Source: Marsupella aquatica
Taxonomy: Eukaryota > Plantae > Marchantiophyta
Direction: 5' to 3'
Length of the DNA: 64,000 nucleotides
Assembly: GCA_973895155.1 (NCBI GenBank)
Contig: OZ316896.1
Span: 8,391,539-8,455,538, forward strand
The first letter of the stretch is position 1. Every line of letters starts with the position of its first letter. Below are positions 11,101 through 56,744 of the stretch, in pieces. The position numbers and the translations under genes were made by a program. The notes beneath the pieces were generated by a model. That model was given only the letters and a program-made list of their open reading frames with translations, did not search any database and was not told the origin of the DNA.

Positions 11101-14100
11101 TAGCGGGGAAACAGTTGGATATAAAGACGAAGGGCTATCATCTGGTCAAAATGTATTAGGCATGTCCATCAATATAAAAAAGATAGATTAATTACCATTT
11201 TCAACTGAATGTTCAAAACTTCTTTGAAGAGAGCATTACTCTTGTTAGAAGAAAATCCATGCGAGGACTTGCACATAGCTCCAAGTGGTGAAAACAGGTT
11301 GGAGAAATCTTAGAAATACAATACGGTAAGATAGACCAGCAATGTGGCAAATAAGCAGATCACAGATGGCACTTGCCTTGTTGATCAACAGTCCAGCATG
11401 TTTGACAAGCAGCAAAAGGGTGTCTCCATGGGCTGAACTAAAAACAGGCAGAAGAGAGGGCAAAGTTGACAGCACGAAGTCGCTCTTATCCTGCACATGC
11501 ACAACACAAATTCCCTTCACTGAGAGAAACCGTGACCCGGGTTCGCAAGGCACCATCGAATGATTTGCTCATAGAGAACAAAGAGATCTTCACGCGTACT
11601 TAGACTGTGCTTGACCGTGTCAAGGAGAGGCTCTATTCAAGAAGTTCAATCGAGTTATTTTCGTCACACAATTGTGTACCTAGAACTACTAACGTTCCCT
11701 TGACTACAAAAGTCCATTACTTCAATTCCCGTACGAAAACCTCCAATAATTAAAAAAGTGCCATGTTGACATAAACACAACTAAAGAATTACATTCGGTT
11801 GATGACACTTGGGGAAGATCACTGCTTATCTCGAGAGAAGCCAACGTTCTGTGTGGTAATGTTACATATCAAAATGGTCACCCACAGTCTCACTGGTTCC
11901 AATAAGAGCTCGGACAAAGCTGCATCTAGAGAAGCTTCCCGCATATCAAATATCCCCCAACAATTTATCGAAGTGAAAAATACCTGAGCTTCAGCGATAG
12001 TCAAAACCATTGGTAGCACCATGGGTTGCATCACTTCATTCCGTAGCTCAGCACAGAGAGGAGCCAGGACCTTCACACAACAGAGAATAGCCCCAACTTT
12101 TGTCACACAAAAATAAGCTAAAAACAAAAGATTACAAACTAGGCCATAGAAAAGCTTCGTGAGGGCGTCAGTCGCCAGCAGCTGCTGTAGTCTTTCAAAT
12201 TCTTTCAGTCCCTCGACCTGCTACTCTGCCTGGCGTATTTCTTGTCCAAACTTCACCTTAATATACAAACTTCTGCACAAATCTTGACATCTTCTTGCTT
12301 TTGAAACTATAAAAAAAGTCAAAACCTTTTGGCCTACAAAGGAGGGCCGTGAAAAAACTTCAATACCAACACTCAGTAATCAGACAGCAACACGAACTCA
12401 ATGACAGAATGACAAAAACAACAAAACAAATGACCCGACCGCCTCAGCAGAGAATAGTACCTTATATCTAAGAACACGAGCATCAAACCCAGTCCACATT
12501 TCAGCGAGTGCTTTCAGAAAATCTGATTTCTGCATATTGTCTCTTTCCTGGCAACGGAAAAAAATCCACAAATCAGTTGATGCGTGAATCCAAATGAAAA
12601 AGCCCCAAGTCTTCCAATGAGAGCTCCTAGTGCAGAGATTAAACAACGTTCCTTTAAAAAAGGACCGCATGACACAAGAGCGGGAACAGAGGGGACAGGA
12701 CTTCTCAGAACACGAAACTCATGACACTGGGGACAACTAATGCCTGGAGTAACTCATCCAAAGACAAGTCTTAGTGATTTCGTTATCCTAGAAGTTGAAC
12801 ATTATGTCAACCTAAGCGAGCAAATATAAGCTTCGATGACACAATGAATGATTCCCTGACCAAGGGCTCAAATATGGACACAGGTCAAAGAGTGCAGAAA
12901 GTCTCCACTCCCATAAAGTTGAAAGAACTCACTGGTTAAACTCTTTACATCCGGCGTATCTAAGCAATGCTGTCCTTTCGTTTTACGGGAGACCGTAAAA
13001 ATGAGGAATGAAAAGTCTCCTTGGTGAGAGCTTACGAGCAATTAGAGACACCCAAATCAGAAATGCTAGACAGGAAGGCCAAAGTAGAAAAGTTTCTAAC
13101 CAGCATGTGATCAAGAAAGCGAAGTGCGCGTAACCGGGTGTCGTTTCGGAAATACGGAGAGCCTGTAACAAATATCAAAGGGCAAAATGTTAATCCGTGA
13201 CAGAAATACAGATTATTAGGTACTTCCTTGGAACACAAAGCTCTTATCCATAAGACCAATGAAATACATAGGAAACTGGTATTGCTTGACAAGATTTTGT
13301 CCCGCTAAGGTCTTCTAACGCAAAATCAAATAACAACCTTCTGGCTAAAACCACGACGCTTCCCTTCCCTCTCATATGCCTGACACAAGACAGTTTGGTC
13401 GGGCCAGCTTTGAGCAGCAGTAAGAACTCAGAAAGGAGTATACCTGTGAAATCTAAGGCACTGGGCCTGGCAAGCTCATCAGGATTGAGCATCCGACGCA
13501 AGTCTTGAACAAGTTCAGGTGGTATTTTGGTGAAGCTCTCATTAGAAAGGTATGTAACATTGCTTGTGTACTGCATCACCAATTCAACTAAGACACATGA
13601 GACTACCTGTAGTAAGAAACAAAAGCGACGTATATTCGGACTGCACTTCAACTGATACATGGAGAAGAGCACAAAGGAGATGAATGAACCTACTGTTCTG
13701 AGGTTATTGTTACATTGAAGAAGAGATCGTTGTGTAAGGAGATGATAAGCAACACAGGCAAGACTGAAAATATCAGTAGACGTTCGAGGCGAGGACCCTT
13801 GACCACGGGTAATCTCTGGTGCCACATATTCCAGCAATGGCTGGAGTGGCATCGCATTCTCCTCGACGTCATAGTCCTAATATCAAAGAACAAATATATT
13901 AAGTCACTGCAACCATTTGACCCGCACTAGCAATAAGAGTCGATAGAAATTAGAGCTGAGATGCATCAAAAAACAATGCGAGTTCTAATTTCAGTACTAA
14001 AGGCACTGGTTGAGTGCCACGTCTAACTGCTGCTTCTCACATTGCTGTGGGAGCTGAGAAGAAGGCTCTGGACATTTTCTCTACTTGAAGACAAATTGGC

Positions 14101-20660: not shown

Positions 20661-21003
20661 TGTTGAGCATAGACGACACTCGTAACGGTAAGCACATGAC
20701 ACATCCACTGCACAAGTAGTCGACACAAGAAATACGTGGTTCACCTCCTCGAGGCTACGTCCACAGGAACACACAAGAGAGCTTTATTGAACTCTAAGCC
20801 CGTTGGCCATACCAAGTCTCCACAGTGTAAGCTCTTCTCATCTCTCAAGTGGCTCCATAATAATGAGCCTAAGTTCCACTTATCCAAGCAAACATCACTT
20901 GGCATATAGTGTGCATCCTAGTTAACCTAACCACGTCTTTGACTATGGTTAGCCTAACTACGGTTACATGTCGTAACCCTAGACCTTGAGTAAATACCTA
21001 ACA
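20661..21003 (-). mobile_element. Solo LTR, copy 1 of a ~340-bp family
   Basis: TGTTG...TAACA termini; flanks TGGGG/TGGGA (near 5-bp TSD); homologous to 21509-21852, 31279-31623 and, inverted, 22253-22554. Strand is relative only. Confidence 0.85.
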
Positions 21004-21508: not shown

Positions 21509-21852
21509 TGGTGAGCATAGACTACATTCACAACGGTAAGCTCATGACACATCCAACGTACAAGTAGTCAACACAAGAGATATGTGGTTCACCTCCTCGA
21601 GGCTACGTCCACAAGGACACACAAGAGAGCTTTACTAAACTCTAAGCCCATCGGTAATACCAAGTCTCCACACTGTAAGCTCTCATCATCTCTCAAGTGG
21701 CTCCATAACAATTAGCCTTAGTTGCACTTATCCTAGCAAGCACCGCTTAGGATATAGTGTGCAACTTAATTAACCTAACCACATCTCCGACTACGATTAG
21801 CCTAACTATGGTTACATGTCATAACCCTAGATGTAAGAGTAAACACCCAACA
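21509..21852 (-). mobile_element. Solo LTR, copy 2
   Basis: TGGTGAGCATAGAC...CCCAACA; flanks ACTTT/ACTCT; collinear with copy 1. Confidence 0.85.
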
Positions 21853-22554: not shown

Positions 22555-23490
22555 AGTCGGGTGTCCCTTCTATTGAACACCCAAATCAAATCCATGACTT
22601 TTGATGAAATCAGGTCCCCCACTTAAGCACTCACCTGCTCCATAAAGCACCCCCAAAATCCCTCTTTTAGCCCGGGCTCTCAACATGGCCGTAATGTTGA
22701 GGCTTTATGCTTTGGAAATATTTATCATAAAACTCCCTCTCAAAACTCCTCAAAAAAGGTTCTTCTCCTCAAAACCAAAAAAACTAGAAACCACTTGGGA
22801 GAGTTCATTGAACCACAAGGAATGATAAGAATGATAATAAATTAAAATGAAAAGGAACCTACATGTGTATATACACCCTTAGGGGTCTCACTATATAGAG
22901 GCCTCCCTATCACCTGTGATATTTTTAGGCCTCAAACCCCCTAAAATGTAAGATTTAAATAAATTTTTAAAAACCCTGTAAAGTTAAAATATTCTTAGAA
23001 TGTTCCAAAATTTTGATTAGAAAGACCCTCATGTTCTTATTAGTCTTGAAATTGGATTTAAAAGACTCTATTGTTATTCTGAGAAAATTTGTAAGTCTTC
23101 CCTTAGAACCAATAAAATGACCCTATCTTTCATTGAACGTGATGTGTCATTTTTGTGGAAGTGAAACCCTCGAGTATACACCTAGAATTTTGGCTTATCT
23201 AGTACATTCACATAACCAGGAGATAAGTTAAGGTCCGTTTCCATGGACATTGACTGTGTCACACATTCTCATAGTGGAAAATAACATAGTGGCTGCAAAG
23301 GGGAAGCTTTTGAAGGGGTTTGCAAAAGCTGTGTAGTTTGATCATGTGGACAGCACTTGCTAAATTCCTCTAGTTGTTGCCTCCATGGTATTCGAGGTAT
23401 ACATGCATTGTGCCATGTGGACCCACAGACTGACCTCCTTAAATAGGGACCCTCTTTCCCCATGACAGTTACAGCTGTTTTCATTTGAAA

Positions 23491-24935
23491 TGGCAAAGTT
23501 TGGAAAAAAGGTTATTCAAGCTTAGTAGGATGCCCCCCATGAGTGTTTCAGTTATTTTTTATATAAAACCCCAAAGTTTGCAAAAAGGGTTGTTCAAGCT
23601 TAGTAAACTGCCCCCCATGATTGTTTCAGTTGTTTTAATTTGACACAGCAAAGTTTGCAAAAAAGGTTTGGAAGCTTAGTAAAATGTCCCCCCATGAGTG
23701 TTTCAGTTGTTTGACACAGCAAAGTTTGCAAAAAAGGTTGTGCAGGCTTTGTAAAATGCCCCTCGCCCCCATGAGTGTTTAAGTTGTTTTAATTTGACAC
23801 TCCAAAAGTTTGGAAAAAAAAACTTGTTCAAAAAAGTAATATGTCCCAACCCCCCCCCCCCCCCTGCCCACCCCCACATGAGTATTTCAGTTGTTTTGAT
23901 CTGCCATTGAAAAGTTTGCATAAAAGGTAAAATGTCCCCGCCATGAGTGCTTTAGGTGTTTTGATTTGACACGGCAGAGTTTGCCAAAGAGGTTGTTCAA
24001 GCTAAGTAACATGTTCCCCGGGCCCCATGAGTGTTTCAGTTGTTTTAACTTGAAAAGGCAAAGTTTGCAAAAAAGGTTGTGCAAGTTTTGTAAAGTGTCA
24101 CCCCCCCCAGTGTTCAAGGTGTTTTAACTTGACCCCCAAATTTTGCAAAAAGAGTTGTTCAAGCTTAGAAAAAAGCCCCCACCCACCATGAGTGTTTCAG
24201 TTGTTTTGATTTTCCATGGCAAAGTTTGCAAATAAGGTTGTTCAAGCTTAGTAAAATGTCCCATCATAGTGTATCAGTTGTTTTAATTTGATATGGCAAA
24301 GTTTGCAAAAAGGTTGTTCAGGCTTTTTAAAATGCCCCCACCCCCCATGAGTGTTTCAGTTGTTCTTGTTTGACACTGCAAAGTTTGAAAAGAAGTTTGT
24401 GCAAGCTTAGTAAAATGTCCTCCCTTGAGCGTTTGAGGTGTTCTAAATTGACACGGCAAAGTTTGCAAAAAAGGTTGTCCAAGCTTAGTAAAATGGCCCC
24501 TCTTGAGTGTTTCAGTTTTTTAATTTGACAAGGCAAGTTTACGGAAGGGTTGTTTCAACCTTAGTAGAATGTCCTCCCATGAGTGTTTCAGGTGTATTGA
24601 TTTGACATGGCAAAGTTTGAAAAGAAGTTTGTGCAAGCTTAGTAAAATGTCCTCCCATGAGTGTTTGAGGTGTTCTAAATTGACACGGCAAAGTTTGCAA
24701 AAAAGGTTGTCCAAGCTTAGTAAAATGGCCCCTCTTGAGTGTTTCAGTTTTTTAATTTGACAAGGCAAGTTTACGGAAAGGTTGTTTCAACCTTAGTAGA
24801 ATGTCCTCCCATGAGTGTTTCAGGTGTATTGATTTGACATGGCAAAGTTTGCAAAAAAGGTTGTTCAAGCTTAGGAAAAATGTCTCCCCCCCCCCTCCCC
24901 CCCCTCCATGAGTGTTTCAGTTGTTTTAATATGAT
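23491..24935. repeat. ~78-bp minisatellite, ~18 copies, with a 232-bp (3-unit) higher-order duplication
   Basis: Consensus GGCAAAGTTTGCAAAAAAGGTTGTTCAAGCTTAGTAAAATGTCCCCCCATGAGTGTTTCAGTTGTTTTAATTTGACAC; ~24381-24612 nearly identical to ~24613-24844. Confidence 0.95.
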
Positions 24936-25132
24936 ATGGGTGTAAAGTGCTCAGTCCCAATGTCGGAGTCCGGCCAAGGGGTTTAAGTTCAGTTGACACA
25001 AGTGCTCACACACCAAAATAACTTGGATATTCCAGTTTAAAGCACATTGAATAGTTGAAATTCTATGGGATGATGTGGATTACTCACATGATCTTCAGAT
25101 TTACCCAGGTCTCTGATTGGACCTGCTATCAG

Positions 25133-25366
25133 ACCATTTTGTTCTAAATCCATGCCATCCGAGTCATAATATACATATTCATAGATTCTATCTGAGCTTA
25201 TAAATCTTGGCCATTTTGTTCTACATCCATGCCATCAGAGTCATAATTATATACATATTCATAGATTCTACATGAGCCTTTAAACCTTGACCATTTTGTT
25301 CTAAATCCATGCCATCCAAGTCATACTATAGATATTCATAGATTCTATATGAGCTTATAAATCTTG
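25133..25366. repeat. ~78-bp tandem repeat, 3 copies (unrelated to the preceding array)
   Basis: CCATTTTGTTCTAAATCCATGCCATC..AGTCATA..ATACATATTCATAGATTCTA..TGAGC.T.TAAA.CTTG three times. Confidence 0.9.
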
Positions 25367-28083
25367 CATTTTAACTACATTTTGTCACTAAAGTTATTTC
25401 AATTTACAATAGTGCCGCTGTTTTTGTGAAACCAAAGCCCGGATGGACTTGAAGATTGTCTCCCATCATCCCCATTGACTGTGACACATAAACTAAGCAT
25501 TTACACCTAATGATGAGAAAATCTAGGTAATCAATGTTCTAATTGTTTACCTAGGTTTCAAGTACCTTAGGAGACTATGTACACTTGAAAGTGAACTGAA
25601 AATATGTATTGAATGAAACAAAGGTTTACATCTAGTATTGTATTTGAAATTTTTGAGACCTCCGCGACGGCAAAGTAGTGGAAGCACTTATTGTAAGAAG
25701 AGTAACGCTCTTTTGAAAAATATCAATTCTTGGAGCTCTACAGTGGGAAATTTAATTGAAGTGCTCTTTGTGAAAGAGCAATGCTCTATGAAAAATAAGA
25801 TTTCTCAACAATACTCTCTTAGATTAAAATCTGAGATAACTCTGTTGCAGCAAAATAAGTCAAACCTCTTCTTAACACAAGAGCGACACTCTATGGAAAA
25901 TACAATTCTGTCTCAAGAGCAATGCTCTATGAAAATTAAGATTCGCACCCAGTTTTCCTAGTGGAAATTGTTATATTGGTTCATGGGGATTGTGTTGCTT
26001 GTTTCCCCCTTTTGTGGGATTTTTGCGATCTATATATTATAAACATAAAAATATTCGTGAGGAAAAAATTGAATTTATTTTGCTTTTGCTCATTGAACCA
26101 AACTACTTGAGGCGCTAGAGTAAATTCTGAATTGCTTAGTCTATATAATTTTATTACCACAAAGGCCAGATTAGGCATACAAATTTCTAAACATACCTTA
26201 CACATTTTATATTTTTTTATTGAACTCTAAAAAAATGGTTAAAGTGACTAGCTTGAGGGAAAAGGATATTAAGAGAATACAATGAGGCTTGCAATCAAGG
26301 CTGATCTGGTTGGTACATGGTATCTTTGAACAAAAAATGGACAAAGGTGGTACTTTGACAAGGTACTTTTGGACAGATGAACAAAAGTGATGATGTGACA
26401 TGATATTGTTGGACACAAGTGTAACAAATAATATCCAAGCATGTAAGTGTGTTTGAGTCAAGTTAATCCAAGTTTGATTTGTCCATAGGCCTTCATAGCC
26501 AACATATCAATCCATCCTGATTTTAAGTTTGTTTTTTTAATATTTACAAATATAACACAATCTTTGTATTTGGACAACTTTGTTAGATTGGTGAACTTGT
26601 TGTCCATATACAAAACCTTGGCATACTTGTAAATAGCAAACAAATAGCCCTAGTACTAACATTTGGAACATGCAAAAGTAGCTAAAAGTTGATAAATCTT
26701 ATCCAAGCAAAACGTTTGGCATGGGTATCGCTTGAACATTGTTCCGTGCAAACCCCTGATAGGATGTCATTTTGGGCCACCCGTGGGCGACTTGACATAC
26801 GATATTTATAACATGTATATAGATACGTATAGTATGGTGTCGTGATCGGAGATATTTATTCTCCAATACGGTAACCCGAGGTGAGTCAGTTGACAAATCG
26901 TTGACGACTCACGACTCAAAGAGGCTTTTGGCGGGTCTCAGGTTTTTGAAACTTTACGCCGTAAAATTATACTTTTTTGAGGAAAGGAGCATTTATACGC
27001 TCTCTCAAGCGTGAAGCGTGAACGAGAACGAGGTCCGCAATTCCTCGTGAATCCTCGTTGGTGAGTCTTCGTGACTTTGTCGTTGTGGAAAAGAGCATTA
27101 CTTTACGCGCTCTCCCTTTCTTTCTGATAAACAAGCAGGAGGTCCGCAATTCCTCCTGAATCCTTTTTGATGAATCTTTGTGACGTTGTCGTTGCGGAGG
27201 ATTGATAGGAGGAGGAGGGTTCCTGGTTTGTCGGGCGCTTTGGACGCCGAGTCGTAGTGCGATGTTGTGTGGAGCTTTGGAAGGACTAGCGCATTCGGGG
27301 CATCGGTAGTGAAGGTCCTCCGCTCGTGGATGCGAGTCTCTGCAAGGTAATCCAATCTCTTGCAGATATAAATAATACATTTGTAACAGGTGCGAGAGGC
27401 CTGTCAGTCAGCACTTCACTGTGGGAATCGATCGAGCTGCCGTCAACTCACTCTTCGGGAGTGTTTTTCTGTTTGGGAAAGCTCAAGCCGGTAGTGTAAC
27501 AAACTCGGTGTGTGCGCAAGCTGTGTCTTCAGCCAGTGGAGTCGATCGGAAGGAGTCAGCTGATTGCGCAAACGCTTGAGAAGACTTGTCCGCCCACTAA
27601 TCATTCATCGGATAGGAGTTGAGTGAATTCGATTTCTCTCCGCACCTGAACACCCTGCAGGTACGGGGACGGATTGCAGGTGTTCAGCGAACTCGAATTC
27701 ATCAATTGTGTGCGGTGTTGCAGGACAGGACGACCCTGTCCAAAAGGGTGCGATCAGGGAGACATTACGTTGTTCAGGAGGGGGCGGGGGCGATAAGGGT
27801 GATTCGGAACCTCTGGAGATCGTTTTAAAGTGGCTTGATCTGGAGCTCCGTGTTTGGTATTGCATAATTAAGCGGCAACTGTTCGGTCAAAGCAGTGAAT
27901 AGATCTTTGCTTTTTAAACACACAGCTTTGTTGAGTGTTTCTGGTATTTGAACCAAGAAAGGGAAGGAGATTGCGAGATTTGTTTTGAAGTGGGGCACAG
28001 CCAGGGTAAGGCAGGGGAGGGCAGGGTTCTCTAGTTCCCTTGCACGAATCTTTGATACCACCAATGATCGTAGGTTGCCGACT

Positions 28084-28716
28084 ATGGGGTTTCCTGGAGC
28101 GTACGGGATTGTGTTTCCACTGGCGGTATTCAAAATAGCGGTGACCTTGATGTGGATGAAGCAGGTTTGCGTATCGATCACGAACTTTGCGTTGGGCCGG
28201 GGGTGGGACAATCCGTCTGTTAGAATATTTCCAAACATTCCACTCTATTGGGCTGAATCTCAGGCTCAGGAAGCCACTTATGGTATCATATGTGCTCTAA
28301 ACGACGGGATGCTGGCTGCTGAGATCAGGGCGTCTATTCCAGTGGTCCGATTCAGAGACATATCTAACAAGAAGCTCCCGAGTAGTGACGAGGAGGAGGA
28401 GCCTCAGTGTTCGGTCTGCCTCTGTGATTTCACCGCAGAAGATAACGTTCGGCAACCCCCTCGCTGCTCTCATGTTTTCCACAAAGATTGCTTGGATCGG
28501 TGGACGGCGCATCATCAAACGTCTTGCCCTCTCTGTCGGTCTAGCCTCACCCCTGAGTGGCTAGAACAGGAAGATGCGCAGACGACGACACGACGCTCGT
28601 CGATTCGCAGCAGCAACAGCAGGGTCCGGACGACTGGCTTCCCGCATTTCGCAGACCAAGTGGTACAACTAGCGCTGCGAAGGGACGCAGCGGGCTGGGC
28701 CGTGGATACTACTTGA
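28084..28716 (+). CDS. RING-H2 (C3H2C3) E3 ubiquitin ligase, RHA/XERICO-like, intronless CDS, 210 aa
   Basis: ATG at 28084 (MGFPGAYG); hydrophobic N-terminus; CSVCLCDF-x11-CSHVFHKDCLDRW-x7-CPLCR RING-H2 motif; GC-rich leader upstream from ~26.9 kb. Confidence 0.9.
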   Translation: MGFPGAYGIVFPLAVFKIAVTLMWMKQVCVSITNFALGRGWDNPSVRIFPNIPLYWAESQAQEATYGIICALNDGMLAAEIRASIPVVRFRDISNKKLPSSDEEEEPQCSVCLCDFTAEDNVRQPPRCSHVFHKDCLDRWTAHHQTSCPLCRSSLTPEWLEQEDAQTTTRRSSIRSSNSRVRTTGFPHFADQVVQLALRRDAAGWAVDTT

Positions 28717-31278: not shown

Positions 31279-31623
31279 TGTTGAGCATAGACAACAATCG
31301 CAACGGCAAGCCCATGAACCATCCAACGCACAAGAGTCGACACAGAGAGATACGTGGTTCACCTCCACATGAGGCTACGCCCACGGGAACACACAAGAGC
31401 TTTACTGCACTCTAGGCCGACCGGCCATACCAAGCATCCACAGCGCAAACTCTCCCTATCTCTCAACTAGCTCCGTAACAGTGAGCATAAGTTCCCACTC
31501 TCCAAGCAAACACCGCTTGGATATAGAGTGTGCACACCATGACTAACCTAACCAAGTCTGTGACTAAGGTTAGCCTTAACTACGGTACAGTCGTAACTCT
31601 AGACCTAAGAGTAAATCCTAACA
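31279..31623 (-). mobile_element. Solo LTR, copy 4, perfect 5-bp TSD
   Basis: TGTTGAGCATAGAC...CCTAACA flanked by ATTTG (31274-31278) and ATTTG (31624-31628); inserted between two copies of a ~50-bp unit GGGGTGGCA.ATTT.T.GAAGTATATATGA.GGGAGTGTCC. Confidence 0.92.
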
Positions 31624-43813: not shown

Positions 43814-44552
43814 GGATTGTTCCGAAACTATGGTCCAGCAGGATTTCCAAGTTTGTGGTTTCTCTCCAAAATGATAATCAACCGGTTGGGAGCAGTATAA
43901 TTACCGTTTACACAGGTTTCTTCTTAGACGAATGTGTCTGATTTGTTCATAATATTGAAGGCAAAGACTACAAAAGAGCCTGATTCAAGTTTTAGTGAAA
44001 TCATTTGGCTGTCAAGCAAATCAATTAGACAAAGTTTGCCAATATCTAAAGTCAACATCAATCCACGTGCAACATTTAGTAGTTCATAGATGACAGAACA
44101 GTAGGCAAGTCCTCAGCCTTTCGTAAACACAAGAGATGGATTTTGTTGATTTTTGTGACCTCCTTGACACACTTAGAAATACCCTGGCCACTCAGCGCAA
44201 TGACTTTCCTGCCAACCTCGTGCTCCCTCTGATTTGCAACCACCTCCCGCCTTAATTAAGCAATCACTCTTCATGTGTAAAACGCTGGTGGATTCAGGTC
44301 ATCAACTTGTCCCTATCCCAAACTTTAAATTATTGGGGTATATAAGTAGTATTATGGCTACCTAATGAATTGCTGATGTCGTTTATCCAAAATCCATAAG
44401 AGGGTCAGTTAGTGACATTAAGATAACCTTTAGGAGAAATTCAATTAGTACCTCAAACATGTCTAAAGGCCTCCTCCTTTGCTAGTCCCAATTCTCTAAA
44501 GGCCTCCTTTGGTCCAATGGCCCCAGAAAAGCCAGCTTAAAATAGGGCAGCT

Positions 44553-44911
44553 TGTCATGCCAAGGGACAGTGCCTCTTGTGCACATCGGCATGTCCTTCG
44601 CATGTCCGCTAGGTATGTAGTTAGGGCTAGTATACTACTTGAGTTAGTGTCATGTTCTTATAGCGAGTCTGGGTCGTTCTTGAAACAAAGGTGTTTGTTA
44701 GTGTGATGCCTAGACCCGGTCCTATTTAGGGCATGTTTTTCTTTGTCATTTTTTAGTTCTTCTTGAATCGTTGTTGACAGAGCTCAGACAGTGCTCGTCG
44801 GTTCCGTACACGGGATTCACACAGTGATTCGTTAGATGCTCCCGGCCGATCTTGGCATCCCGTCGGTTTTCAATTCGATTTCAGTACACTTGTTTCTCTT
44901 ACGCCTTTTAT
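44553..44911 (+). repeat. Terminal repeat A1 (359 bp)
   Basis: Matches 53759-54117 with 13 mismatches by manual count, all transitions, no indels. Confidence 0.97.
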
Positions 44912-44923
44912 TCAAGAAGAACT
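44910..44923 (+). promoter_or_regulatory. Self-priming primer-binding site (Tf1-like)
   Basis: ATTCAAGAAGAACT is the exact reverse complement of AGTTCTTCTTGAAT at 44755-44768 inside A1; no tRNA-type TGG PBS is present; TATTTA lies ~30 bp upstream of 44755. Confidence 0.75.
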
Positions 44924-46153
44924 CGTCGAGATAGCAGTGAGGGGAAGAAGATTACTTGTGGCGGTTTCGACAATTTCTGGTGAAATCATTGCAATTTCTT
45001 CTACGAATATCGGAGCGACGAGTTGAACGTTATGGATTTATGTTGTTATGTGTATACTTAAGTGTATACACATATCAATGCTCCCGGGGGGGTCCGGAGT
45101 TCCTTTTCTGGTTGCACCCGCGACTCCTTTGCTCCTTACTGTTGCTGCCGATTGCTGCCGACCTGTTGTTGCCGACTGCTCGACTGCTTTTGGGGTCATT
45201 TTTGCATTCCCGGCCACAGCTGCAGGCGAGTTTGCCTCGGCCACCTCGCGACTGCATAGGACCGAGCCCCTATTACATCCTTACGTTCTCGGCCATGTGC
45301 CTCCCCTCGGCACTTCTCCCCTTCCCGGCCATTTTCGTTTCATCTCGTTTTCCGATGCAGTTGCAGCTCCCTGCCGTTGCAATTAAAACAGGGGAGAGGG
45401 AGTGAGAGTCGAGGGCACGAGGCCCTATGGAGAATAAAGGAGGGTGAGGGGAGGTGAAGCGAGAGTTGGGCACGAAGCCCCTATACAGCATTAAAGGAGG
45501 ATAGCACAAGCAAAAGCAAAGAGGAGGAGGAGCGACAGCGAGTGAAAGGGCACCAAGCCCTAGGTAGCATTAAGTGGGGAGAAGCCCTGCCACAAGCATG
45601 CGAGGGAGAAGGCACACGGCCCCATTCAGCATTAACAAGGGGGAGGGGAGTTAAGTCGACTCCCTTCTCGGGAGTGCTCCTGCCAGGGCACGAGCCCAAA
45701 TTATTACATTGCAGGAGAGGAGGGGGAGTTCGTAGTCCCTCCATGGGGGCCCGATGCTTTTCTTTTTGCCATCTCTTTCCTTTCGCACTTGCCACGCTGT
45801 GTCTTGCCTTTTCCTCCTTACGCCTTTTGTGCTCCGCAGCCTATATGTACATAGGGCATCGTGCCCTCCCGTTTCTTTCCCTCGCCGGCCATAGAGACTC
45901 CTCAACTTTTCCATAGCCGTCCGACTAGCGCTGCATAGGGCCGTGTGCCACGAGTGTGGTCCGGCTGCAATTTCCGGGGCCACAATGGGCCCCAAATGTG
46001 TATACACTTAAGAGGGGCCTGGTTCACATATTCGACTACCGCTGCATAAGGCCCATATTTCCCCAATTTCTTTGCTGCCGCCACATGTCATCTACATAAG
46101 GTTAAGGGCCCGGCATACACATCAGACCGTCGATCCGGCAAGCACAACACAGC

Positions 46154-48189
46154 ATGTCAGCAGAGGAGCCCAGAGGTAGCAGCATATCGCCACCGACACC
46201 CAGGTACCATTTACGGAGTGATCCACGACCATTGGTGCCAATTTCATTGGAGTCTCGGCAATTTCGACGACGCCAGCAAACAGCAGTAGCACCCACACCA
46301 CGCAATCCTTCTGCTACATTTGGCGGTCGCTTTCCCACTACCCCGAAGCCTGCTATCGCTTCTCTACCCTTTACCCCTTCTGCATCCGTGGTTGTTCCTG
46401 CTTCACCGACATACAGCATGGACGCCAGCCACTCATCTGGCCGCATTGAACGCTTCAGCGGGCGGCCAGGCACTGTTTCTTTACGTGAGTTCAAATCCAC
46501 TTTCTACACTGTTGTTTACGAATTGGAGTTGAAGTACGGCAGCAATTTCACAAATGCTTTTGCATTTAAGCAGCTAGCCAGGTATGTGCACCATGAGGCT
46601 TTGGATGTGTATGAGCAGCACTCTCAACGGCTGCTTGCTGTCACACAATTGCCTAACCCTGCCTATGCCAGTGCAATTGCGGCTGCCTCACAATTGGCAT
46701 TACAGAATGCCATTGCAGCCCATGTTGCTGCTCTTGCCACTTCCCCTCCTACTCCAGTTCCTACCACTGCGCCAGTTACTCCCACTATCTTGGCACAGGC
46801 TACATCAAGCATTTCTCCCACCATTGATTCCCCTGCCTTTGCTGATCCAGTGGCTGAATTTTTCCAGGTTCTCGAATTGGAATTCCCCATCAAGAGTGCT
46901 GACAAAATCATGCAGTTGGCCACCTTTGTGAGGCAGCGCAATGAAACCTTGAAGATGATGTATCGCCGGCTTCTCAAGCTGAAGGAGGACACCCAGAGCA
47001 TCACTGACCTGGAAGCTGCTCATCGTTATCTTCGCGCATTGGAGGGCACACCAGCTCTCCATTCGCAAGTGTTGCAGCAAGTATTCTCAGAGTTTGGAGA
47101 CAGCTACACCCTGCTCAATGTCTATGACACTGCTGAGAAATTTGAGTTGGCCCATGCACATTATGAGGCCAGTATTGCACGTCCACCGCGATCCAGGTAC
47201 CAGACTGCTGCCCCTATACTGGCCACCCCTTCCCGTGTGCCACAGTATGGTTCCAAGACCAAGCCAGTCCATGCTGTTTTCATGCTGCCATCTTGCAACT
47301 ACTGTGGTAACCCAATCACAAGGCTAATGAATGTGATATTGTTGTTGAGGACCTTTCTTGTGATTTTTGCGGGAAAGTGGGTCACTTGGAGGCAGTTTGT
47401 TTTGCCAAATTCCCAGAGAGGAAGCAGCTACGACAACAGGCCACTCATCCTGCTCCTGTTTCCACTCCCCCACCAGCTAGGAGGGCTCCTACTACATCAA
47501 CTGCTCCTCCTTCCAGTGGCAAAGCATCTAGTACCAACAAACCGCCCAAGCAGCAACAGAAGCAACCAGCTCAGAAGGAGGCTCACAACGCACAGGCAAC
47601 TCAACTCCAGTCTCTGACTCATGAGGTTGAGTCCCTACGTGCCCAACTTGCCAACATCAAAGGCAAGTCAACTGCCTCTGCTGGTCCTTCTCAACCGGCT
47701 GGTCACGTGCAACCCATCGCTGGCCCAGGCACCACTGACAGTTCAACACCTCTACCCCGCTCTTTCTATGGCTTGCCATTTGATGCTCATATGGGTGAGT
47801 GTGTGCTGTCCTCTGCTCCACAGCCTGGTCTTACAGCAGAATTTTCAGATTCATTCTGCCCTTCCTATTTTGCTTACCAGCACGCCAGTGCTGCCTCCCG
47901 TATTGCTCCCACACGCCGCATTGTACAGGCTGATGGTCTTGCTGCCGGTCCTATGACTAGAGCCAGGGGAGCTCGGGCTGTCATGCCCCAATCTTTTCAG
48001 CCACTCACACTTGCTGAAGAGCGCACCTTGTTGGCGAGGGGGGAGGGAGCTGCAGCTACATCCATTCCACCACCAGGTGCTGCTGACATTTCACAGGGAG
48101 TTGTTTCTCCTGAGCTGCTTGAGCATTTCACCTCTGGTATGGCACAAAGGATTCTTACAACTCCACTTTTCAGTTGCCATGATTTATAG
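46154..48189 (+). pseudogene. Retrotransposon Gag with two CCHC zinc knuckles plus linker (frameshifted)
   Basis: Capsid-like region RIERFSGRPG...QRNETLKMMYRRL. A 1-bp deletion near 47314 breaks CNYCGNP(N)HKANEC, followed by CDFCGKVGHLEAVC. The in-frame TAG at 48187-48189 continues into the 48250 ORF. Confidence 0.85.
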
Positions 48190-48549
48190 CTGGATGCTAG
48201 AGCTGTCCTTAGGGCGCTAGAGGGTTCACTGCATTCTTTATCAGCCCCTGTGACACTGGTTTTGGAGGTCCAATCTCATGTACATATTGGACCTTCTTCT
48301 TCTCCATTACATGCTTCCATTGGTTTGGCTATCCCAGTACCAATTTCCAGTGGTAGCGATGACAGTATTGCTGCAGATTGTGTGACCAGAGTTACACTAG
48401 ATTCTGGTCATGTTGCTCCATCTTTCCTGACTATGTTGTTGAGTGGAAAGACCGTGGATACTAACTCCCTTCACAAGGTACCTCATCATCTGCCAAAAGT
48501 GGTGCCTAGCGACAGGACTTCAGTTTCCACCACTATTGCCATTGTTGAC

Positions 48550-48900
48550 AACAGGAATTCAGCGGTCAAGTTGGAGGGTCACACTCCTCAGGTGGTCATG
48601 CTAGACACAGGCGCTCAACCAGTGATATTGGGCATTCAGTTTGCCAAGAAGATGGGACTGTTGACTGATCATTTACAGCAATCCAGATGGCATATTCGGA
48701 CTGCTAGTGGCACTATGGAGGATGTGCTGGGTGAGAGTTCTACTTTACTCACTCTCACTTTTAATGGAGGTACAGATCAGGAACTGCATTTCCCAGTCAG
48801 ATGTTTGGTTACCAATGTCACTACGTATGATGTGCTCATTGGCCAGGAGGTTTTGTTCCCACCAGGTTTTACCATTGACAACTGGCATGAGCATGCATAC
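48550..48900 (+). CDS. Retroviral-type aspartic protease domain of the polyprotein
   Basis: VMLDTGAQPVILG (DTG at 48604-48612), IRTASG flap, YDVLIGQEVL motif. Confidence 0.9.
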
Positions 48901-49266
48901 TACAGAGTTGATTGGCATACTGATGGCTCACACTTGGGCTACATTCCACTTGATTTGCATGGTGCCCATACACCTATGGCTCACCACTGTGTGTTGAAAG
49001 CAGTGCACACAGCTACCTATGTCAACCACCCATTGCAGGATTGGATTGAGGAGGATGACGATGAGGTGGCTGCTGCACATGCTGTTGCACGTATAGCAGC
49101 ACTTTCCAGCAACGTGAATCATCAACCAGAGGTGGTACAACAGCTCCAAGCAGCCCATGGGCCTTTGGTGGCTGCATTGCGCAAGTTTGAAGACCTTGGG
49201 CAGCACAATGGACAGCCAATAGCCCCAATCTTGAGCGCACCAGTTACATGGACTCCTGCTCCGGAT

Positions 49267-50200
49267 GGCCTTACATTGCTTGAGCTTTTTGGTGGCATTT
49301 CTACAGGCCTGGAAGCTCTCCTACAGTCCGACATGGTGGTGAAGCAGTACATCTACATGGACATTGATCCAGGTGCAAGGCAAGTGGTTGAATCCTGTCT
49401 GCTGGAATTTTCAGAACGATTTCCCCAACAGTTTCCACACAATGCATGGAAGTCTGCATTTTCTTTCTTCCCTCCAGATATCCAGCTTGTCCAGCACCGA
49501 CACTTAACCCTTCTTGGTTCCCTCAATTTGATCATAGCTGGTTGGGAATGCCAAGGGTTTTCAGCTGCTGGTCATGGTGCTGGATTGCATGACTCTCGTT
49601 CTAGCCTTTTCACAACATTGGTTCAGATTCTCATCTGGGCTCAATCCCTTTATCCTGCTGTTGGTTATATCATTGAGAATACTCCATCTCAGTTTGACCA
49701 GCGTCCACAGGTCAAAGAGGATTTTAGTGTGGTCCAGCACTACTTGGGACCACCCCTTCTCATTGATGCAGTGCACTGTGGTTCTTATGCACATTGTCTT
49801 CGTAACTTTTGGACTAACCTTGCACCACCTTCCTTGCTGGAGCTAGCTTTTCACCACACATCCAGGGATACTAACCTCACAGTGGACCAGATTTTGGATC
49901 CTGACAGTTCTTGCCAACCAGTTACCCGGCAAGAGCCAGCACCTTGGTATCCAGCCAATACCATTGGACAGCCCCGTGCTGCTTGGCCTACATTTGTATC
50001 CTTTCCAGGTGCACATGCCTTTCAGGGTGATGGTCCTGGCCTGGTTTATCGATATTCTACCGGTACATGGGATGAACCTAGTCCTGAGGAGAGAGAACAG
50101 GCTATGGGCTTCCAATCCGGTACTACAGGTCACACCCAGATCACCAGGCTGGCCAGGAATGCTTTACTTGGCAGGGTAATGGATCTTAATGCTCTCACTT
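49267..50200 (+). CDS. C5-cytosine DNA methyltransferase domain embedded in the polyprotein
   Basis: Motif I LLELFGGISTG, II YMDID, IV IIAGWECQGFSAAG, V RSSLF, VI IIENTP, VIII AHCLRNFWTNL, IX PEEREQAMGF, X RNALLGRVMD, in canonical order and in frame with the protease. Confidence 0.9.
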
Positions 50201-50606
50201 GGCTTCTGGTCACTTGCATCCTTTTTCAGATGTACATTCATCCAGCATCTGGAGTTCCAGCTCTACCACTCCATGGTGCTTCTACATGGCATCCCGACCA
50301 GGTGCACTTACCTCTATTCAACACTCACCGCTTCAGTCCAAGTGTTGGGGGGGGAGGAGGTCCCTTGTAACGTGGCTGACAATATTTCTGAGTTTCATGG
50401 TGTGGACCAACTCAGATCAGCAGGTACAACAGGCCTTGGAGAGACCTCGTCACCTTATCAGCAGCATGCTAGCAGCTTGGACAGTGGAGGTTGGCACTTC
50501 TGGCTCTTCAAGCACGAGTACATCAGGTCCTATTCCTAGTGTTGCCAACTACACATTCATCATGGGCAACCACTTGAGTAAAAGATAGAAGGACCAGCTG
50601 CTAAAT

Positions 50607-53540
50607 TTGCTCCTCAAGCATGAGAACGTGTTTGCTTTCTCTATGAAGGACTTGGGTAAGTGCAAGACTATGCAGTTCTCCATTGAGTTGGCTGATGAAA
50701 CACCTATCTTCAGGCGGAGACACCGTTTGAGTAAGCATGAGTGGCAGCTGGTGGATGAGAGGTGCCAAGAGCTCTATGAAGCTGGTCTTATTCAGCCATC
50801 TACATCAGATTTTGCAGCAGCTACAGTGATGCCAACAAAGAAGGATTCCAGTGGATTGTGGACAGAGAAACGCATGTGTGGGGACTACAGGCCACTGAAC
50901 CTGGTCACACCCCAGGACAGGTACCCCATGCCACGGCCAGAGGAGCTATTTGATAGCATTGGAGACTCAGACATCTTCACTCTTGTGGATCTAAGGCAAG
51001 GCTTCAACCAGATTTTGCTGCTTGCAAAGGATCGCAAGAAAACAGCTTTCCATGGTAGTAACCAACTATGGGAGTGGTTGGTGATGCCATTTGGCTTGCA
51101 GAATGCGCCCATATTCTTTCAAAGAGTCATGGACCAGGTTCTTCAAGGTGCTGAGTTTCTGAAATGCTACATTGATGATGTGTTGGTCCACAGCAAAGGA
51201 TTTGACCAGCATCTACTTGACCTTGAGGAGCTATTCATGAGGCTTAAGAAGGTGAACCTAAAGATACACCCCAAGAAGTGTGAATTTGCTGTCAGATCAA
51301 TAGTATACCTTGGGCACCGCATTCTTCCAAATGGAACCATGGCTCACTGGGCCAAGGTAGTATCCATCTTGGAAATGCCCACTCCTACTGATGTTCACAC
51401 TTTGAGGAGTTTTATTGGGTTGTGCAATTACTACCGGATCTACATCAAAGATTTCAACACCATTGCACACCCATTGTATGCTTTGTTGAAAAAGAATGTG
51501 ACTTGGACATGGAGTACAGATGCTGAGGTAGCATTTGCCACTTTGAAGAAGAAGCTCTCAGAATACCCAGTGCTGAGAAGACCTGATTTTAGCAAGGTCT
51601 TTGTGCTCCACACAGATTGGAGTGCCCTTGGGATTGGTGCCATTCTAGGCCAACATGATGAGGAAGGTAAGGAGTACGTCATTGCCTATGCATCCAGGAG
51701 CAACAATCAGGCCGAGAGTCATTATTCTTCTTATGAGGGTGAATGCCTTGCTGTTGTGTGGGCTGTCATACATTACAGGCCCTACCTCTATGGGACCAGG
51801 TTTACTCTCTACACCGACCACCAGCCCTTGAAGTGGTTGATGACTAACGACAAGCTTACTGGCAAGCTTGCTCGTTGGGCACTCATCCTCCAGGAGTATG
51901 ACTTTGAGGTAATTCATAGGCCTGGTTTGACACATCAGAATGCTGACACTATGTCCCGCAGCCCTTTGATTACCTCTGATGATTCCTCAGATGCACGGCA
52001 AGATTTTGACCAGGTTTCCATCCTACCTACATTTCATGCATCTACCTATCTTGCTTTGCTGCCATGCTATGTTGTTGACCAACCTATGGTGGACATATGG
52101 GAGGACAACGACACTCTGAGATTTCTGCAGCATGGGGAGTACCCCACCCATGTTACTACTGCCCAGAGAGACCGAATTCAGCAAAGGTCCAAGTGCTACT
52201 TGTGGAAGGGAGATCATCTTGTGCGCTGCCTGCCAGACAGGGAAGTGGTGGTTCCACCCATTCATGAGAGGGTTGGCCTTATCCGTAAGGTACATTCTGA
52301 GCTTGGTCATTTTGGTGTTAAGAGGACTTATAGCCTCTTGGTCCCCCATTATCATTGGAGAGGCATGCATGGCCAGGTTCGAGATGTTATTGCCCAGTGT
52401 GAGCAGTGTGATAGGGTAAGGACTTCTTTCACATCTCGGCAACCCACACTTCATCCACTCCCTATTCAGGGCATGTTTTATCGTTGGTCATGTGATTTGG
52501 CTGGAGAATTACCCCTCACATTTTGGGGTAATCTCTACATCATGATCATGATAGAGCATTTCTCCAAGTGGATAGAACTTGTGGCATTGCCGGATAAGAC
52601 CTCCCGTAGCACCAGCCAGGCATTCCTGCAACAAGTTCTCAGCCGCTTTGGAGCTTGTGCAGAATGTCTCACTGACCAGGGCTCAGAGTTTAGAGGAGAG
52701 TTCTAGGAGCTGCTTGATCAGGCCCTCATTGATCATCGTCGGACATCACGAGATCACCCACAGGCAGATGGCTTGGTAGAGCGCATGGTTCAGACATGCA
52801 AGAAGGGCCTCCGGAAGATCTGCCTCACCAAAAACAAGGAGGATTGGGACCTGGCCTTACCCTACATTGCCATGGGGTACAAGATGTCCAGACATGCATC
52901 ACTGTCTAACTTTTCTCCCTACTTCTTGTTGTTTAGTCGTCACCCAGTTCCACCTTCTGCTATTGCTGCTCACATGCTTCAGGTGGTAGACTTGGATTCA
53001 GCTGTGATTTGGTCTGATGTGATCTCTGAGAGGGCTGCCCTATTCAGGAGGGTTATGCCCATGGCCATGGAGAATTTGGCCATTGCACAGCACAGGGACA
53101 CACTGCGTTATGCACACACACGAGGGGGCACTTTTCAGCCCAAGGTCAGGAAGTTTGATGTGGGAGATTTTGTGTACTTGCAGCGGCAAGCTAACGACAC
53201 CCTGGACACCTCTACTAGTCGTACTATTCTCAGGGTTAAAGTTATTCGACCGTCTGGAGTGCTAGAGTTACAAGGGGCAGATGGGCGCACAATTGCTAAC
53301 AATGCCAAGAATTGCGCCCCTTGTCATCTGCCTAACCTGGATCCCACCATTGTGACTTCTACTTGGATTCCACCTGTGGACTACCCTTGCAAAGTGTGTT
53401 TGCGAATTGATGATGCTTACCAGATGCTGCTGTGTGACAATTGCAATGGAGGGTACCATCTTTTCTGCCTTCGGCCTGAACTTACCCAGGTGCCAGAAGG
53501 GTTATGGTTTTGCCCTTCCTATGCTCCACGTGCTACCTGA
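50607..53540 (+). pseudogene. Pol: reverse transcriptase, RNase H, DDE integrase and C-terminal PHD finger (in-frame TAG at 52704-52706)
   Basis: RT: RMCGDYRPLN, DLRQGFNQI, MPFGLQNAP, YIDD (51168-51179). RH: HTDWS, EGECLAVVWA, TDHQPL, NADTMSR. IN: HSELGH...CEQC, WSCDLAG, TDQGSEF, DGLVERM. PHD: CKVC...CDNC...HLFC...CPSY (53388-53522). Confidence 0.95.
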
Positions 53541-53573
53541 ATTTTCTTCAGCCCTCCTTTTGGCTGTGGTCTG

Positions 53574-53580
53574 GGGGGGG
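53574..53580 (+). promoter_or_regulatory. Candidate polypurine tract
   Basis: G7 run immediately 5' of repeat B1 and ~35 bp after the pol stop codon. Confidence 0.6.
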
Positions 53581-54294
53581 ATACAAAGGTTTACACCTCC
53601 ACTACGTACATACCACTTCATTTGCTTTTTCTTGGCACTTGTGAATGTGATTGGATTTTTTCTATGCATGTTGGTTGCTAGCAGCTTGCACATATGCATT
53701 GCCGGTGACTTGTATGTTTTCGATACACTATGGCTACGATACTATATGTCACGACAGCTGTCATGCTGAGGGACAGTGCCTCTTGTGCACATCGGCATGT
53801 CCCTCGCATGCCCGCTAGGTATGTAGTTAGGGCTAGTATACTACTTGAGTTAGTGTCATGTTCTTATAGCGAGTCTGGGCCGTTCTTGAAGCAAAGGTGT
53901 TTGTTAGTGTGATGCCTGGACCCGGTCCTACTTAGGGCATGTTTTTCTTTGCCATTTTTCAGTTCTTCTTGAATCGCTGTTGACAGAGCTCAGACAGTGC
54001 TCGTCGGTTCCGTACACGGGATTCACACAGTGATTCGTTAGATGCTCCCGGCCGATCTTGGCATCCCGCCGGTTTTCAATTCGATTTTAGTACACTTGTT
54101 TCTCTTACGCCTTTTATCATACAGAGGTTTACACCGCCACTACGTACATACCACTTCATTTGTTTTTTCTTGGCACTTGTGAATGTGATTGGACTTTTTC
54201 TATGCATGTTGGTTGCTAGCAGGTTGCACATATGCATTGCCGATGACTTGTATGTTTTCGATACACTATGGCTACGATACTATATGTCACGACA
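53581..54294 (+). repeat. 3' terminal repeat block B1-gc-A2-c-B2
   Basis: B1 53581-53756 and B2 54119-54294 (176 bp, 6 mismatches by manual count); A2 53759-54117; the B1/A2 junction is the palindrome GACA-GC-TGTC. Confidence 0.97.
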
Positions 54295-56744
54295 AGCTGA
54301 CATTCATCCATACCTTTGAGAATTTATATGTGGATTGACATGATGGCGAGGGTGAAGCCCCTATGTGTTAGGATAGATAACATTTGAATATTGAGGTGAT
54401 TTCCTTTAGATCAGGTAGAAGTTGTAAGTAAATATCATTCTTCACAAATTGTTTTCTCCAAAGAATTGTTTGTCGCTATGTATTTAGTTTTACATCTTTA
54501 TTTGTAGTATCAAAATGGACACCATGACATCTCTAAGACTTGTGCCACATAGCACACGAGTACATTGACAGAAACCCTAACATTCTTACTAGCCTGCCCC
54601 CCAGACTAACCCGATATTACTAACGAGCCCCCCAAATTAAATTATTATCAACCCGTCCCACATTTCGTATTCATGTGAATATTAACTCATATATGGGTTC
54701 CTATTGCAATGTGGCAAGTCACTATTGGCTAGCCGCCACCCCCACGGCCCCCCTTCATCTTCCCAGTTACATTTTCTTGAGTAAAAATGAGGGCCAAAAA
54801 TGTTGGGTTTTTGTGAGGGGAGTGTGGAGCAAAAAACAATGTATTTTTTGCCCCTCCTGGACCTGCAACTGTGCTAAGGGGAAGGGGGGCCCAAGGGGGT
54901 GGCCACAGGTTAGGCTAGCCAATAGTGACTTGCCACATGGCAACTGGGAATCCCTATACAAGAATACTGACCCCCATATTGACCTGAATACAAAACGGGG
55001 GACACATTGATAATTAATTCTGTTTGGGAGACAGAATAGTAATATTGGGTAGTTTGGGGACATGTGACAAAAAGCTGTTTTATTTCTATCATAAAGCAAT
55101 GGCTCTGACAATGCATCTCTATTTTGGCATACTTAAGATTTTACCATCAATCAATGTTTATGCAACCTAGACAAAAGTGAAATTCCACCAAAATTTATAA
55201 AACAGGGAAAAACAAAGTACAATGAAAGAGAAAAAGAGGGCAAAGAGTACAAACACCCAACAAGAAAAAATAAATCTAGAGTGTAAAAAACAGCTTAGTG
55301 TTGAAAAGCATACACCCAAAAAAAAATTGATTCCAGGAGTTAGACTTCATCTGAAATTGCAGTTACAAAGTTCCCTCTTTACCCTACTAGCCTGACTGCC
55401 CATGCTTTTCTCAGGCCACAGTTGCCCTTCCCACGTCTTCCCTAGCCTATATTTTGCCACCCGAGAGTCACAGGCTCCACTGTAGACCTCAGGCCCCCAA
55501 GAGTGTAGGTGTCTATTGCTAATTATTAGTTCCATTTTATCCCCAAGTCATAACAAGTCATAATGTTAAGTTAGACTTCCAAAACAAAGGTCTCTGTACC
55601 AACACCGGCCCCCACATTGCCGTGCCTAACATTTACTGCACAAGTAACAAAATGAATTTGACTCAAGTAGGTGTAGAAACGAGGAAACCATTACCTGGTC
55701 GTAATAGTGAATTCCAAGCAAAAAAAGACACGCGGCAGGGTTGGTGATCTCCATTATTAAAGTGGGTTCTTTTGGGCCTTGAAACTTGAAAGGGTGCAAT
55801 GTATTAAAATAAACTTTTCCATGGGGTACAGCGCAGGGCAAGGCCTACATGAGGAACACCAACCACAACGTCGGTCTTCCTTTGAATTAATATCATCACA
55901 CACCATAAATTATTGTCGGTAGTCTTCCGGCTCGCTCTTTCCCAGAATTGGATTTTTGGGGGTAGTTTTGTGGGGATGCTATTAACGTTAGGCACCACAA
56001 TGATAATAAAGTTTCCTTTGAGACAAAAAGAATCAAATGAAGCCAAGATCCACCATCATGTTAGACACAGTGCTCCTCTGGACCACATGCTGGTGTTCCA
56101 TGGGAGTTTGGGGCTTATTACTTCATGTTTATAAGTCCTAAAATAATTTTAGTTTTGCATCTGTAAGGCAACTGGTGAAGGAGGAGAAACAAAAAAACAC
56201 AAATCCTAATATCTGAGATTAACGCAATGAGAATTAGTCAAACAGAACTTACCCCTCCGCCAACTGTGATGACAAACTCATCCAAAATGGTCAAAAATAT
56301 CACTCTCACTTATAGATTCCTCTAGCAGGTCCCCATAACTATAAAATGTTTGAATTTATTAATATCAAGTTACTAAAATTAAACTGAAATTTTGCCAAAT
56401 GTGGTCCATGGGGTTTGGTAGACCCTCTCGTGATCCATGTTGGCTTCCAATTCCAAAAAGGACAGAAAAGAAGTTGCACGGCAAAGGTATACAACCAATT
56501 AAAGTTATGCCATTACACGTTAAAAAAAACAGCAAACGAAAGGACCAGATCTCCAGAATGACACCCGGCACATGGACCCGGAAATATACGTCCAGGCCCA
56601 AAGTCATAGAACAAGATACGTAAATCCTGTCAGGAGAAGAGGTTACCGGTGTGTAACCATTTTTACAAGGGCCTGCTATAGTCATAATCTGGTGTCCTGA
56701 AAAGTTGAGCCGGTAACCTCTTTCCGGGCAGGAGTTACGTACGC

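Follow-up and report, generated by a model that had tools for sequence, protein, structure and literature searches.

A stretch of Marsupella aquatica DNA of 64,000 nucleotides (hereinafter the window) carries a retrotransposon in which the bases at and just beyond the end of the first repeat are complementary to a segment inside that repeat. This raises the question of whether the element primes reverse transcription with the 5′ end of its own RNA, as an earlier note on the locus had proposed, and, if so, where its long terminal repeat (LTR) ends and on which DNA ends its integrase acts. Our analysis suggests that the match is the self-priming signal of a Gypsy-DNMT3/PHD element whose LTR has the composition B+A and whose integrase would cut at a palindrome inside that LTR, not at the ends of the cDNA; from the sequence comparisons detailed below we place the probability of this reading at roughly two in three.

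Organization and affinities of the element

The element is a Ty3/Gypsy retrotransposon of about 9.7 kb (window 44553-54294) that is flanked by AGCT duplications and bears direct, split repeats in the order A1…B1-A2-B2. In full, it is composed of A1 (359 nt), a leader, a probable gag, protease, C5 DNA methyltransferase (DNMT), reverse transcriptase (RT), RNase H, DDE integrase, a PHD finger, a run of eight Gs, B1 (176 nt), GC, A2, a single C and B2 (Table 1). The two A repeats are identical at 346 of 359 nt, all 13 differences being transitions, and the two B repeats at 170 of 176 nt (six differences); the coding frames of this copy are disrupted by stops and frame changes. We infer gag from its position: the region shows no Pfam match above the cut-off, and its frames contain Cys/His knuckle-like motifs. 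The order protease-RT-RNase H-integrase with a DDE integrase is that of Ty3/Gypsy elements; the two identical full terminal LTRs of that group are not found here, where a primer-binding site (PBS) and a polypurine tract (PPT) are present and the repeats are permuted as A…B-A-B.

Table 1. Features of the retrotransposon, in window coordinates
Feature	Position	Strand	Remark
Left target-site duplication (TSD), AGCT	44549..44552	+
Repeat A1	44553..44911	+	starts TGTCATG, the right half of the internal att site
Element at the TATA position	44723..44728	+	TATTTA in A1
Predicted RNA 5′ end and self-primer	44755..44768	+	first 12 nt, pairing to 14; putative start site
Predicted alternative stem around the PBS	44883..44956	+	44883-44904 with 44934-44956; prediction only
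PBS	44910..44923	+	12 nt at 44912-44923 plus the final 2 nt of A1
Probable gag region	46106..48189	+	overlapping frames 46106-47617 and 47311-48189
Aspartic protease and C5 DNMT domains	48190..50370	+
RT, RNase H, integrase zinc finger, first part of DDE core	50589..52706	+	in-frame stop at end
Remaining integrase and C-terminal PHD finger	52707..53540	+	no chromodomain match
PPT, G8	53573..53580	+	adjoins B1
Repeat B1	53581..53756	+	starts ATACA, ends CACGACA
Internal att palindrome GACA-GC-TGTC	53753..53762	.	intact; at B1|A2; same in three families
Repeat A2	53759..54117	+
Extra C at the A2|B2 joint	54118..54118	+	missing in many family copies
Repeat B2	54119..54294	+	ends CACGACA, the left half of att
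Right TSD, AGCT	54295..54298	+

The DNMT domain in pol is recognized by PF00145 at 22.8 bits against a cut-off of 22, and the block is conserved in relatives. Its catalytic region (window 49540-49565) is conserved throughout the clade and reads GWECQG, the corresponding motif being GWPCQG in a related contig, L081, and in Marchantia proteins. Neither a tyrosine recombinase nor a chromodomain was matched in the 19 element frames scanned; L081 likewise gives no chromodomain match and has a PHD finger instead. Liverworts and both streptophyte and chlorophyte algae supply the protein relatives with names (among them those of Calypogeia, Marchantia, Riccia, Klebsormidium and Closterium), the nearest named one being that of Calypogeia fissa (82%). 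An RT-RNase H tree of 29 rows includes K. nitens proteins and places three PF24626-bearing proteins on a long, separate branch, its deep forks being weak. In the integrase core of the window (52680-52790) and of L081, one residue fewer separates the second catalytic D from the E than in Ty3 and the foamy-virus integrase, seen as one gap in each alignment; this might be related to an unusual substrate.

Taken by its domains and layout, the element is best filed with the Gypsy-DNMT3 kind, that of KnitGypsy-Dnmt3 (de Mendoza et al. 2018), with which it shares the Gypsy domains, the DNMT in pol and DIRS-type repeats in the order A-coding-B-A-B. The combination of DIRS-type repeats and Gypsy domains was noted for KnitGypsy-Dnmt3 in the legend to Fig. 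4c of PMC5890265 (partial text), and the split-repeat layout is thus already known; the group is also named in the accessible part of bioRxiv 2026.05.21.726589. The accessible main text of PMC5890265 never mentions priming, primer binding, circular, target site or PHD. Neither self-priming nor internal-att integration was found for the Gypsy-DNMT3 group in the openly readable text of the literature searched, so that the novelty of the priming and integration mechanism is provisional.

Elsewhere in the window we noted a MITE-like inverted-repeat element of 460 bp just 3′ of the retrotransposon (54599-55059), arrays of 77-80 bp units (23422-24885 and 25132-25366), a 300-nt dispersed repeat in three copies (20661-20960, 21509-21808 and 31279-31578), and two stretches that probably belong to host genes: a frame with a RING-H2 finger (27952-28716, + strand) and a protein-kinase fragment (13244-13876, − strand).

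Complementarity between the predicted RNA 5′ end and the PBS

The 14-nt complementarity on which the earlier note was built proved exact: ATTCAAGAAGAACT (44910-44923) is the perfect reverse complement of 44755-44768 and extends no further on either side, its first two bases being the last ones common to A1 and A2 and the remainder lying beyond A. The TATA-like TATTTA that was placed about 30 bp upstream holds in position, starting 32 nt before 44755, and not in sequence: it is a private change of the A1 copy, because A2 and the same-family contigs from public runs have TACTTA, with C at 44725 in nearly all of their depth. The relatives read TATAAAA or TATAG at this position. The TCAGTT reported in A2 lies at 53959-53964 and is the reading of the family; 44754 is a C in most of the same-family contig depth. 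When the 41-nt zone and the LTR were dinucleotide-shuffled 5000 times, no match of 13 bp arose, the maximum being 12; yet 6 of the 1551 zones in the repeat-rich window, the window's own zone among them, have a match of at least 14 bp, which makes the match alone suggestive and not decisive. Hence, the case for a signal is carried by its position and by covariation in relatives.

Relatives were taken from a metagenome scan, as the best 80 of 638 confirmed stretches, most of which represent a single family (family 2) with about 75% protein identity to the window element. The A repeats of the two align faintly, with a score of 127 versus 112 for shuffles. In family 2, the 5′ segment AGTTTTTCTAGAATT is preceded by TATAAAA at a distance of about 30 nt, and its complement spans the end of A; 10 of the 12 primer positions are the same as in the window, and both differences are compensated in the PBS. 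Family 3 (52% protein identity) comprises two contigs, L081 and L082, from a bacterial genome bin, and its A repeats align with those of the other families no better than shuffles do (score 107; shuffle maxima 117 and 120). Here a 13-mer, ATCTTTGTCAAGT, lies 29 nt after TATAG and has a perfect complement after A, 176 nt downstream, the pair being the sole inverted repeat of at least 13 bp in the 700 nt scanned; this PBS comes from one contig, L081, which was assembled as a circle. Thus, the 5′ segment pairs with the PBS of its own family at 12 of 12 positions in all three families, as against just 3-5 of 12 when family 3 is paired with the sites of the others. The bin in question is titled as a cyanobacterium, and its two contigs (L081, G001:C201, with a single B-A repeat in a circular assembly, and L082, G001:C148) contain a complete Gypsy-DNMT-PHD element with an intact pol frame of 1047 aa; they are probably eukaryotic contamination, and no other contigs of the family were found in this metagenome-assembled genome.

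Among the relatives from the best 80 of 638 stretches, 25 rows of family 2 were retained out of 28 in an extraction seeded with the motif of one locus (L077): 5 of them are paired at 12 of 12 positions, 16 at 11 or more when G-U pairs are included, and 21 at 10 or more. These copies are old, with an A1-A2 divergence of about 11%, and in four of them (L006, L021, L034 and L037) the PBS base facing primer position 11 carries the same change, with no matching change in the primer. Inside family 2, conservation at the primer shows no visible excess over the flanking positions, so that only the comparison between families counts. No further family emerged from a search for the motifs in 23 loci that matched A/B poorly or not at all, and two scans of viral contigs found no relatives.

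Since three families with different 5′ segments each match their own PBS, and a TATA-like box precedes the segment by about 30 nt in families 2 and 3, self-priming is likely. The check across relatives that had been set in advance thus found covarying complementarity in two further families, and its retention there with a changed sequence supports the idea of an RNA that primes itself; on these comparisons we regard priming from the RNA 5′ end as very likely. In fission-yeast Tf1, in agreement with the earlier note, the first 11 nt of the RNA anneal to the PBS; this PBS lies right after the LTR, and the primer is cut by RNase H (PMC7175516, partial text). The primer of the window element looks to be about 12 nt long against 11 in Tf1, minor joints being one base longer. 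Folding is equivocal: the primer helix is missing from the best fold of the 206-nt RNA, whose z-score of 0.43 gives no signal, and its probability depends on the 3′ cut-off chosen, being at least 0.7 at 6 of 12 cut-offs and below 0.01 at 2. Of seven relatives folded, mostly picked among the well-paired copies, five give a helix probability of at least 0.55. With regard to the three-duplex pretzel of Tf1/sushi RNAs, the stem enclosing the PBS in the window is predicted to compete with or cross the primer helix; it is inconsistent in the seven relatives, and the folding program is blind to crossing helices. Further along the leader there is a near-palindrome at window 45050-45071, with an echo about 950 nt downstream at 45997-46012.

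The 5′ end-PBS complementarity, with the window's 5′ end placed by prediction, is a feature held in common with the Tf1/sushi (Tcn1) elements; self-priming is listed by Neumann et al. only for Tcn1 and TAR (PMC6317226, partial text). For Tcn1, the chromodomain and the 5-bp TSD are each given as present in 100% (same source), and in fission yeast the PBS is preceded by an LTR ending in CA (bioRxiv 2022.12.06.519325, accessible part), whereas the window element has a PHD finger and a DNMT, a 4-bp TSD, an A end without CA, a primer of about 12 nt and permuted repeats. It works like Tf1 in priming and falls outside Tf1/sushi (Tcn1) on the chromodomain and the TSD length. Nor does any of the three traits of Chlamyvir fit, namely a tRNA-type PBS, a chromodomain and a 5-bp TSD (PMC6317226, partial text).

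The proposed internal att site and the A2|B2 joint

In all three families a G-run PPT adjoins B; since A is followed by the PBS and B is preceded by the PPT, standard reverse transcription would make an LTR of the composition B+A, which we consider likely. The predicted ends of such an LTR are ATACA…TTTAT in the window and ATACA…CAAT in family 2, neither being TG…CA. The integrated ends are instead the start of A (TGTCA) and the end of B (CGACA), giving TG…CA outer ends, and these meet internally at B1|A2 as CACGACA-NN-TGTCA. A regular expression for this B|A junction matched 22 locus rows among relatives from the best 80 of 638 stretches, with a spacer of 2 nt in all 22; it is GC in 14, and the remaining spacers are mostly one transition away from GC. 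The 52% family has the same GACAGCTGTC. Target-site duplications of 4 bp are exact in 11 of 20 elements from the same best 80 and have at most one mismatch in 17 of 20, a tally in which one copy (L030) that is exact by eye counts as a miss; exact 4-bp matches occur in 0 of 380 cross pairs, and exact 5-bp ones in 0 of the 20 elements. The pre-insertion target of the window copy, GGCAGCTGAC (44546-44552 and 54295-54298), agrees with the att palindrome at 8 of 10 positions, probably by chance because the TSDs of other copies vary. Recombinase-type insertion into an att-like target was considered and rejected, the ends carrying a 4-bp duplication.

The A2|B2 joint is the fusion of the two predicted cDNA ends. 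In the window's family it mostly reads TTTAT|ATACA, which puts the reverse-transcribed 3′ end at 44911 and bears out the LTR 3′ boundary that had been proposed at the end of A. Among 16 distinct relatives from the best 80 of 638, with rows of the same insertion merged, the joint is precise in 6 and altered in 10, the alterations being one-base gains (C, T or A), the loss of 1-3 nt and, in two cases, a large deletion reaching the joint. Of 17 att junctions none has an indel, and of 27 A1|PBS boundaries one does, the length of an A-run also varying in several PBS copies, and the excess at A2|B2 over the other junctions is significant (Fisher P about 1e-4). For the family of the window, four public runs gave 7, 6, 2 and 1 contigs lacking the extra C, with precise, +A and one-base-longer joints also present; the precise joint makes up most of the contig depth in three of the four runs and about half in the fourth, depth here not being taken as copy number. 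The RT of Tf1 is reported to add untemplated bases at cDNA ends (PMC11042837, partial text). The simplest reading of these joints would be that A2|B2 is remade in each cycle, with the integrase cutting the internal palindrome. In family 3, the PBS starts with CACTTGA, which is also the first 7 nt of B (L081:7414-7420 and 6948-6954); this microhomology, which is absent in the window family and in family 2, could guide the A|B joint.

Among the relatives from the best 80 of 638 stretches, nine elements have the form A…B-A-B and none the form A-B-A…B, and a B end precedes none of the 26 visible A1 starts. A bias toward the upstream att must be assumed, because a circle with two att sites cut at random should give A-B-A-internal-B equally often; the upstream LTR may become double-stranded first, which would account for the bias and fits integration before end-joining equally well. 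Eleven further loci of the best 80 are of the form A…B, most of them with matching TSDs, and could stem from circles with one LTR, a cut at each of the two sites, recombination between B repeats or collapse in the assembly. Read from the alignment, a one-base indel is in the same state in B1 and B2 of 14 of 14 elements; B2 has its own B1 as the nearest by raw distance in only 6 of 14, with noisy B distances, and A1 and A2 of the same element are nearest in 7 of 8. In two elements (L004:13001-13161 and L022:13980-14122), B1 is without the last 15-nt tandem unit that is present in B2 of the same element. Another locus, L026, ends at the short form of B that is without this unit.

A proposed cycle, its rivals and its significance

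We propose the following cycle. Pol II would start at 44755; the first ~12 nt of the RNA would anneal to the PBS, be freed (by RNase H, if as in Tf1) and prime the minus strand from 44911. Ordinary strand transfers and priming from the PPT would then yield a linear B-A-internal-B-A with the ends ATACA… and …TTTAT. These ends would be joined, most likely as a 2-LTR circle and often with small untemplated gains or losses. Finally, the integrase would cut GACA^GC^TGTC in the upstream LTR, and insertion of the two CA ends, staggered by 4 bp, would leave A-internal-B-A-B; the common A-internal-B copies would arise from one-LTR circles, from cutting at both sites or from B×B recombination at a later stage. 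Cutting of an internal palindrome has a chemical precedent, since HIV-1 integrase can cut the palindrome at the 2-LTR circle junction (PMC1905944, partial text), circles that are themselves formed by end-joining (PMC4372172, partial text). Such circle-junction cleavage by the HIV-1 and foamy virus integrases (PMC1905944, PMC4372172 and PMC1180852, partial texts) is, as in our proposal, the work of a retroviral-type integrase on abutted att halves; there, however, it serves as a back-up and the end-join itself forms the palindrome, whereas here the palindrome is templated in the LTR, the end-join lies at another place and this would be the normal route.

Several other histories could be told of the same repeats. 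The true LTR might be A+B (TG…CA, 536 bp), the window copy being a one-off rearranged or nested ordinary element, and A2-B2 does resemble a normal LTR. This is close to untenable: the layout recurs in 8 family 2 loci with both ends, and the B-A-B end in family 3, which largely refutes it; the PPT stands before B and not A, and the A1 that abuts the PBS is never followed by B. A host RNA, be it a tRNA or a fragment, might instead be the primer, with the self-complement incidental or only regulatory. A PBS for a tRNA 3′ end would start with TGG, and the check set in advance for a tRNA-matching PBS finds no TGG after A in 44906-44945; Rfam detects no tRNA family near the priming site, giving just two weak miRNA matches far below the cut-off, and ARAGORN reports 0 tRNA genes. 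Although most plant Gypsy clades use a tRNA (PMC6317226, partial text), these results, together with three PBS sequences in three families that each fit their own 5′ segment, render a host primer extremely improbable.

Very improbable, too, is a PAT/Ngaro-like replication, wherein RT would jump from one split repeat to another on a transcript running from A1 to B2, leaving the 14-bp match as no more than a structural hairpin. It would account for the A1…B1-A2-B2 order, which is that of Ngaro, PAT-like elements and VIPER (PMC6681497 and PMC5890265, partial texts), and it can draw on the att palindrome at B|A and on the 8/10 likeness of the window copy's target to it. However, those elements encode a tyrosine recombinase, of which no match was found in the 19 frames scanned, whereas the window element has a DDE integrase (rve), PPT, PBS and TSD; the 4-bp TSDs with TG…CA ends and the other targets, which are unlike att, do not fit it, nor do a PPT placed exactly at the start of B and a complement exactly at the end of A in three families. 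A templated A2|B2 joint, moreover, should not be an indel hot spot. A closer relative of our reading retains the self-priming and dispenses with the circle: the linear cDNA would be cut by the integrase at the att of its upstream LTR, both halves would be inserted, and host repair would later join A2 and the B fragment. It predicts the same A2|B2 indels, may explain the one-sided use of att if the upstream LTR is double-stranded first, and would give the 11 A-internal-B loci directly by cuts at both sites. Against this, it requires a double-strand break at every insertion; the precise joints (6 of 16 relatives, and the public-run contigs) fit blunt ligation either way, and genomic copies are silent on the order of events. 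We consider this route unlikely.

The end-joined circle invites a wider interpretation, for which we see the scales as evenly balanced: an old Gypsy clade of the green lineage would normally integrate as such a circle, primed without tRNA, with cDNA ends lacking att and a frozen circle-junction palindrome in the LTR as the only integrase substrate, having converged on the split-repeat layout of DIRS/PAT and, by means of a retroviral-type integrase, on circle integration of the IS3 type. In IS3/IS911, a DDE enzyme cuts abutted ends with a short spacer in a circle; these are bacterial DNA transposons without reverse transcription. Retroviral-type integrases normally act on linear cDNA ends, circles being dead ends or a back-up. 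If our reading is true, a family with an internal att and cDNA end-joining in each cycle makes circle-based integration directly testable, and it explains DIRS-like repeats in a Gypsy element. Self-priming would then be a property not just of Tf1/sushi and the TAR Copia lineage but also of a clade lacking the chromodomain, in which it may have arisen separately. LTR-finding programs would overlook such elements or misplace their ends, though the elements are seemingly abundant in their hosts. The B+A LTR and the integrated ends derived from an internal site are a consequence that goes beyond the earlier note, and would be the larger result.
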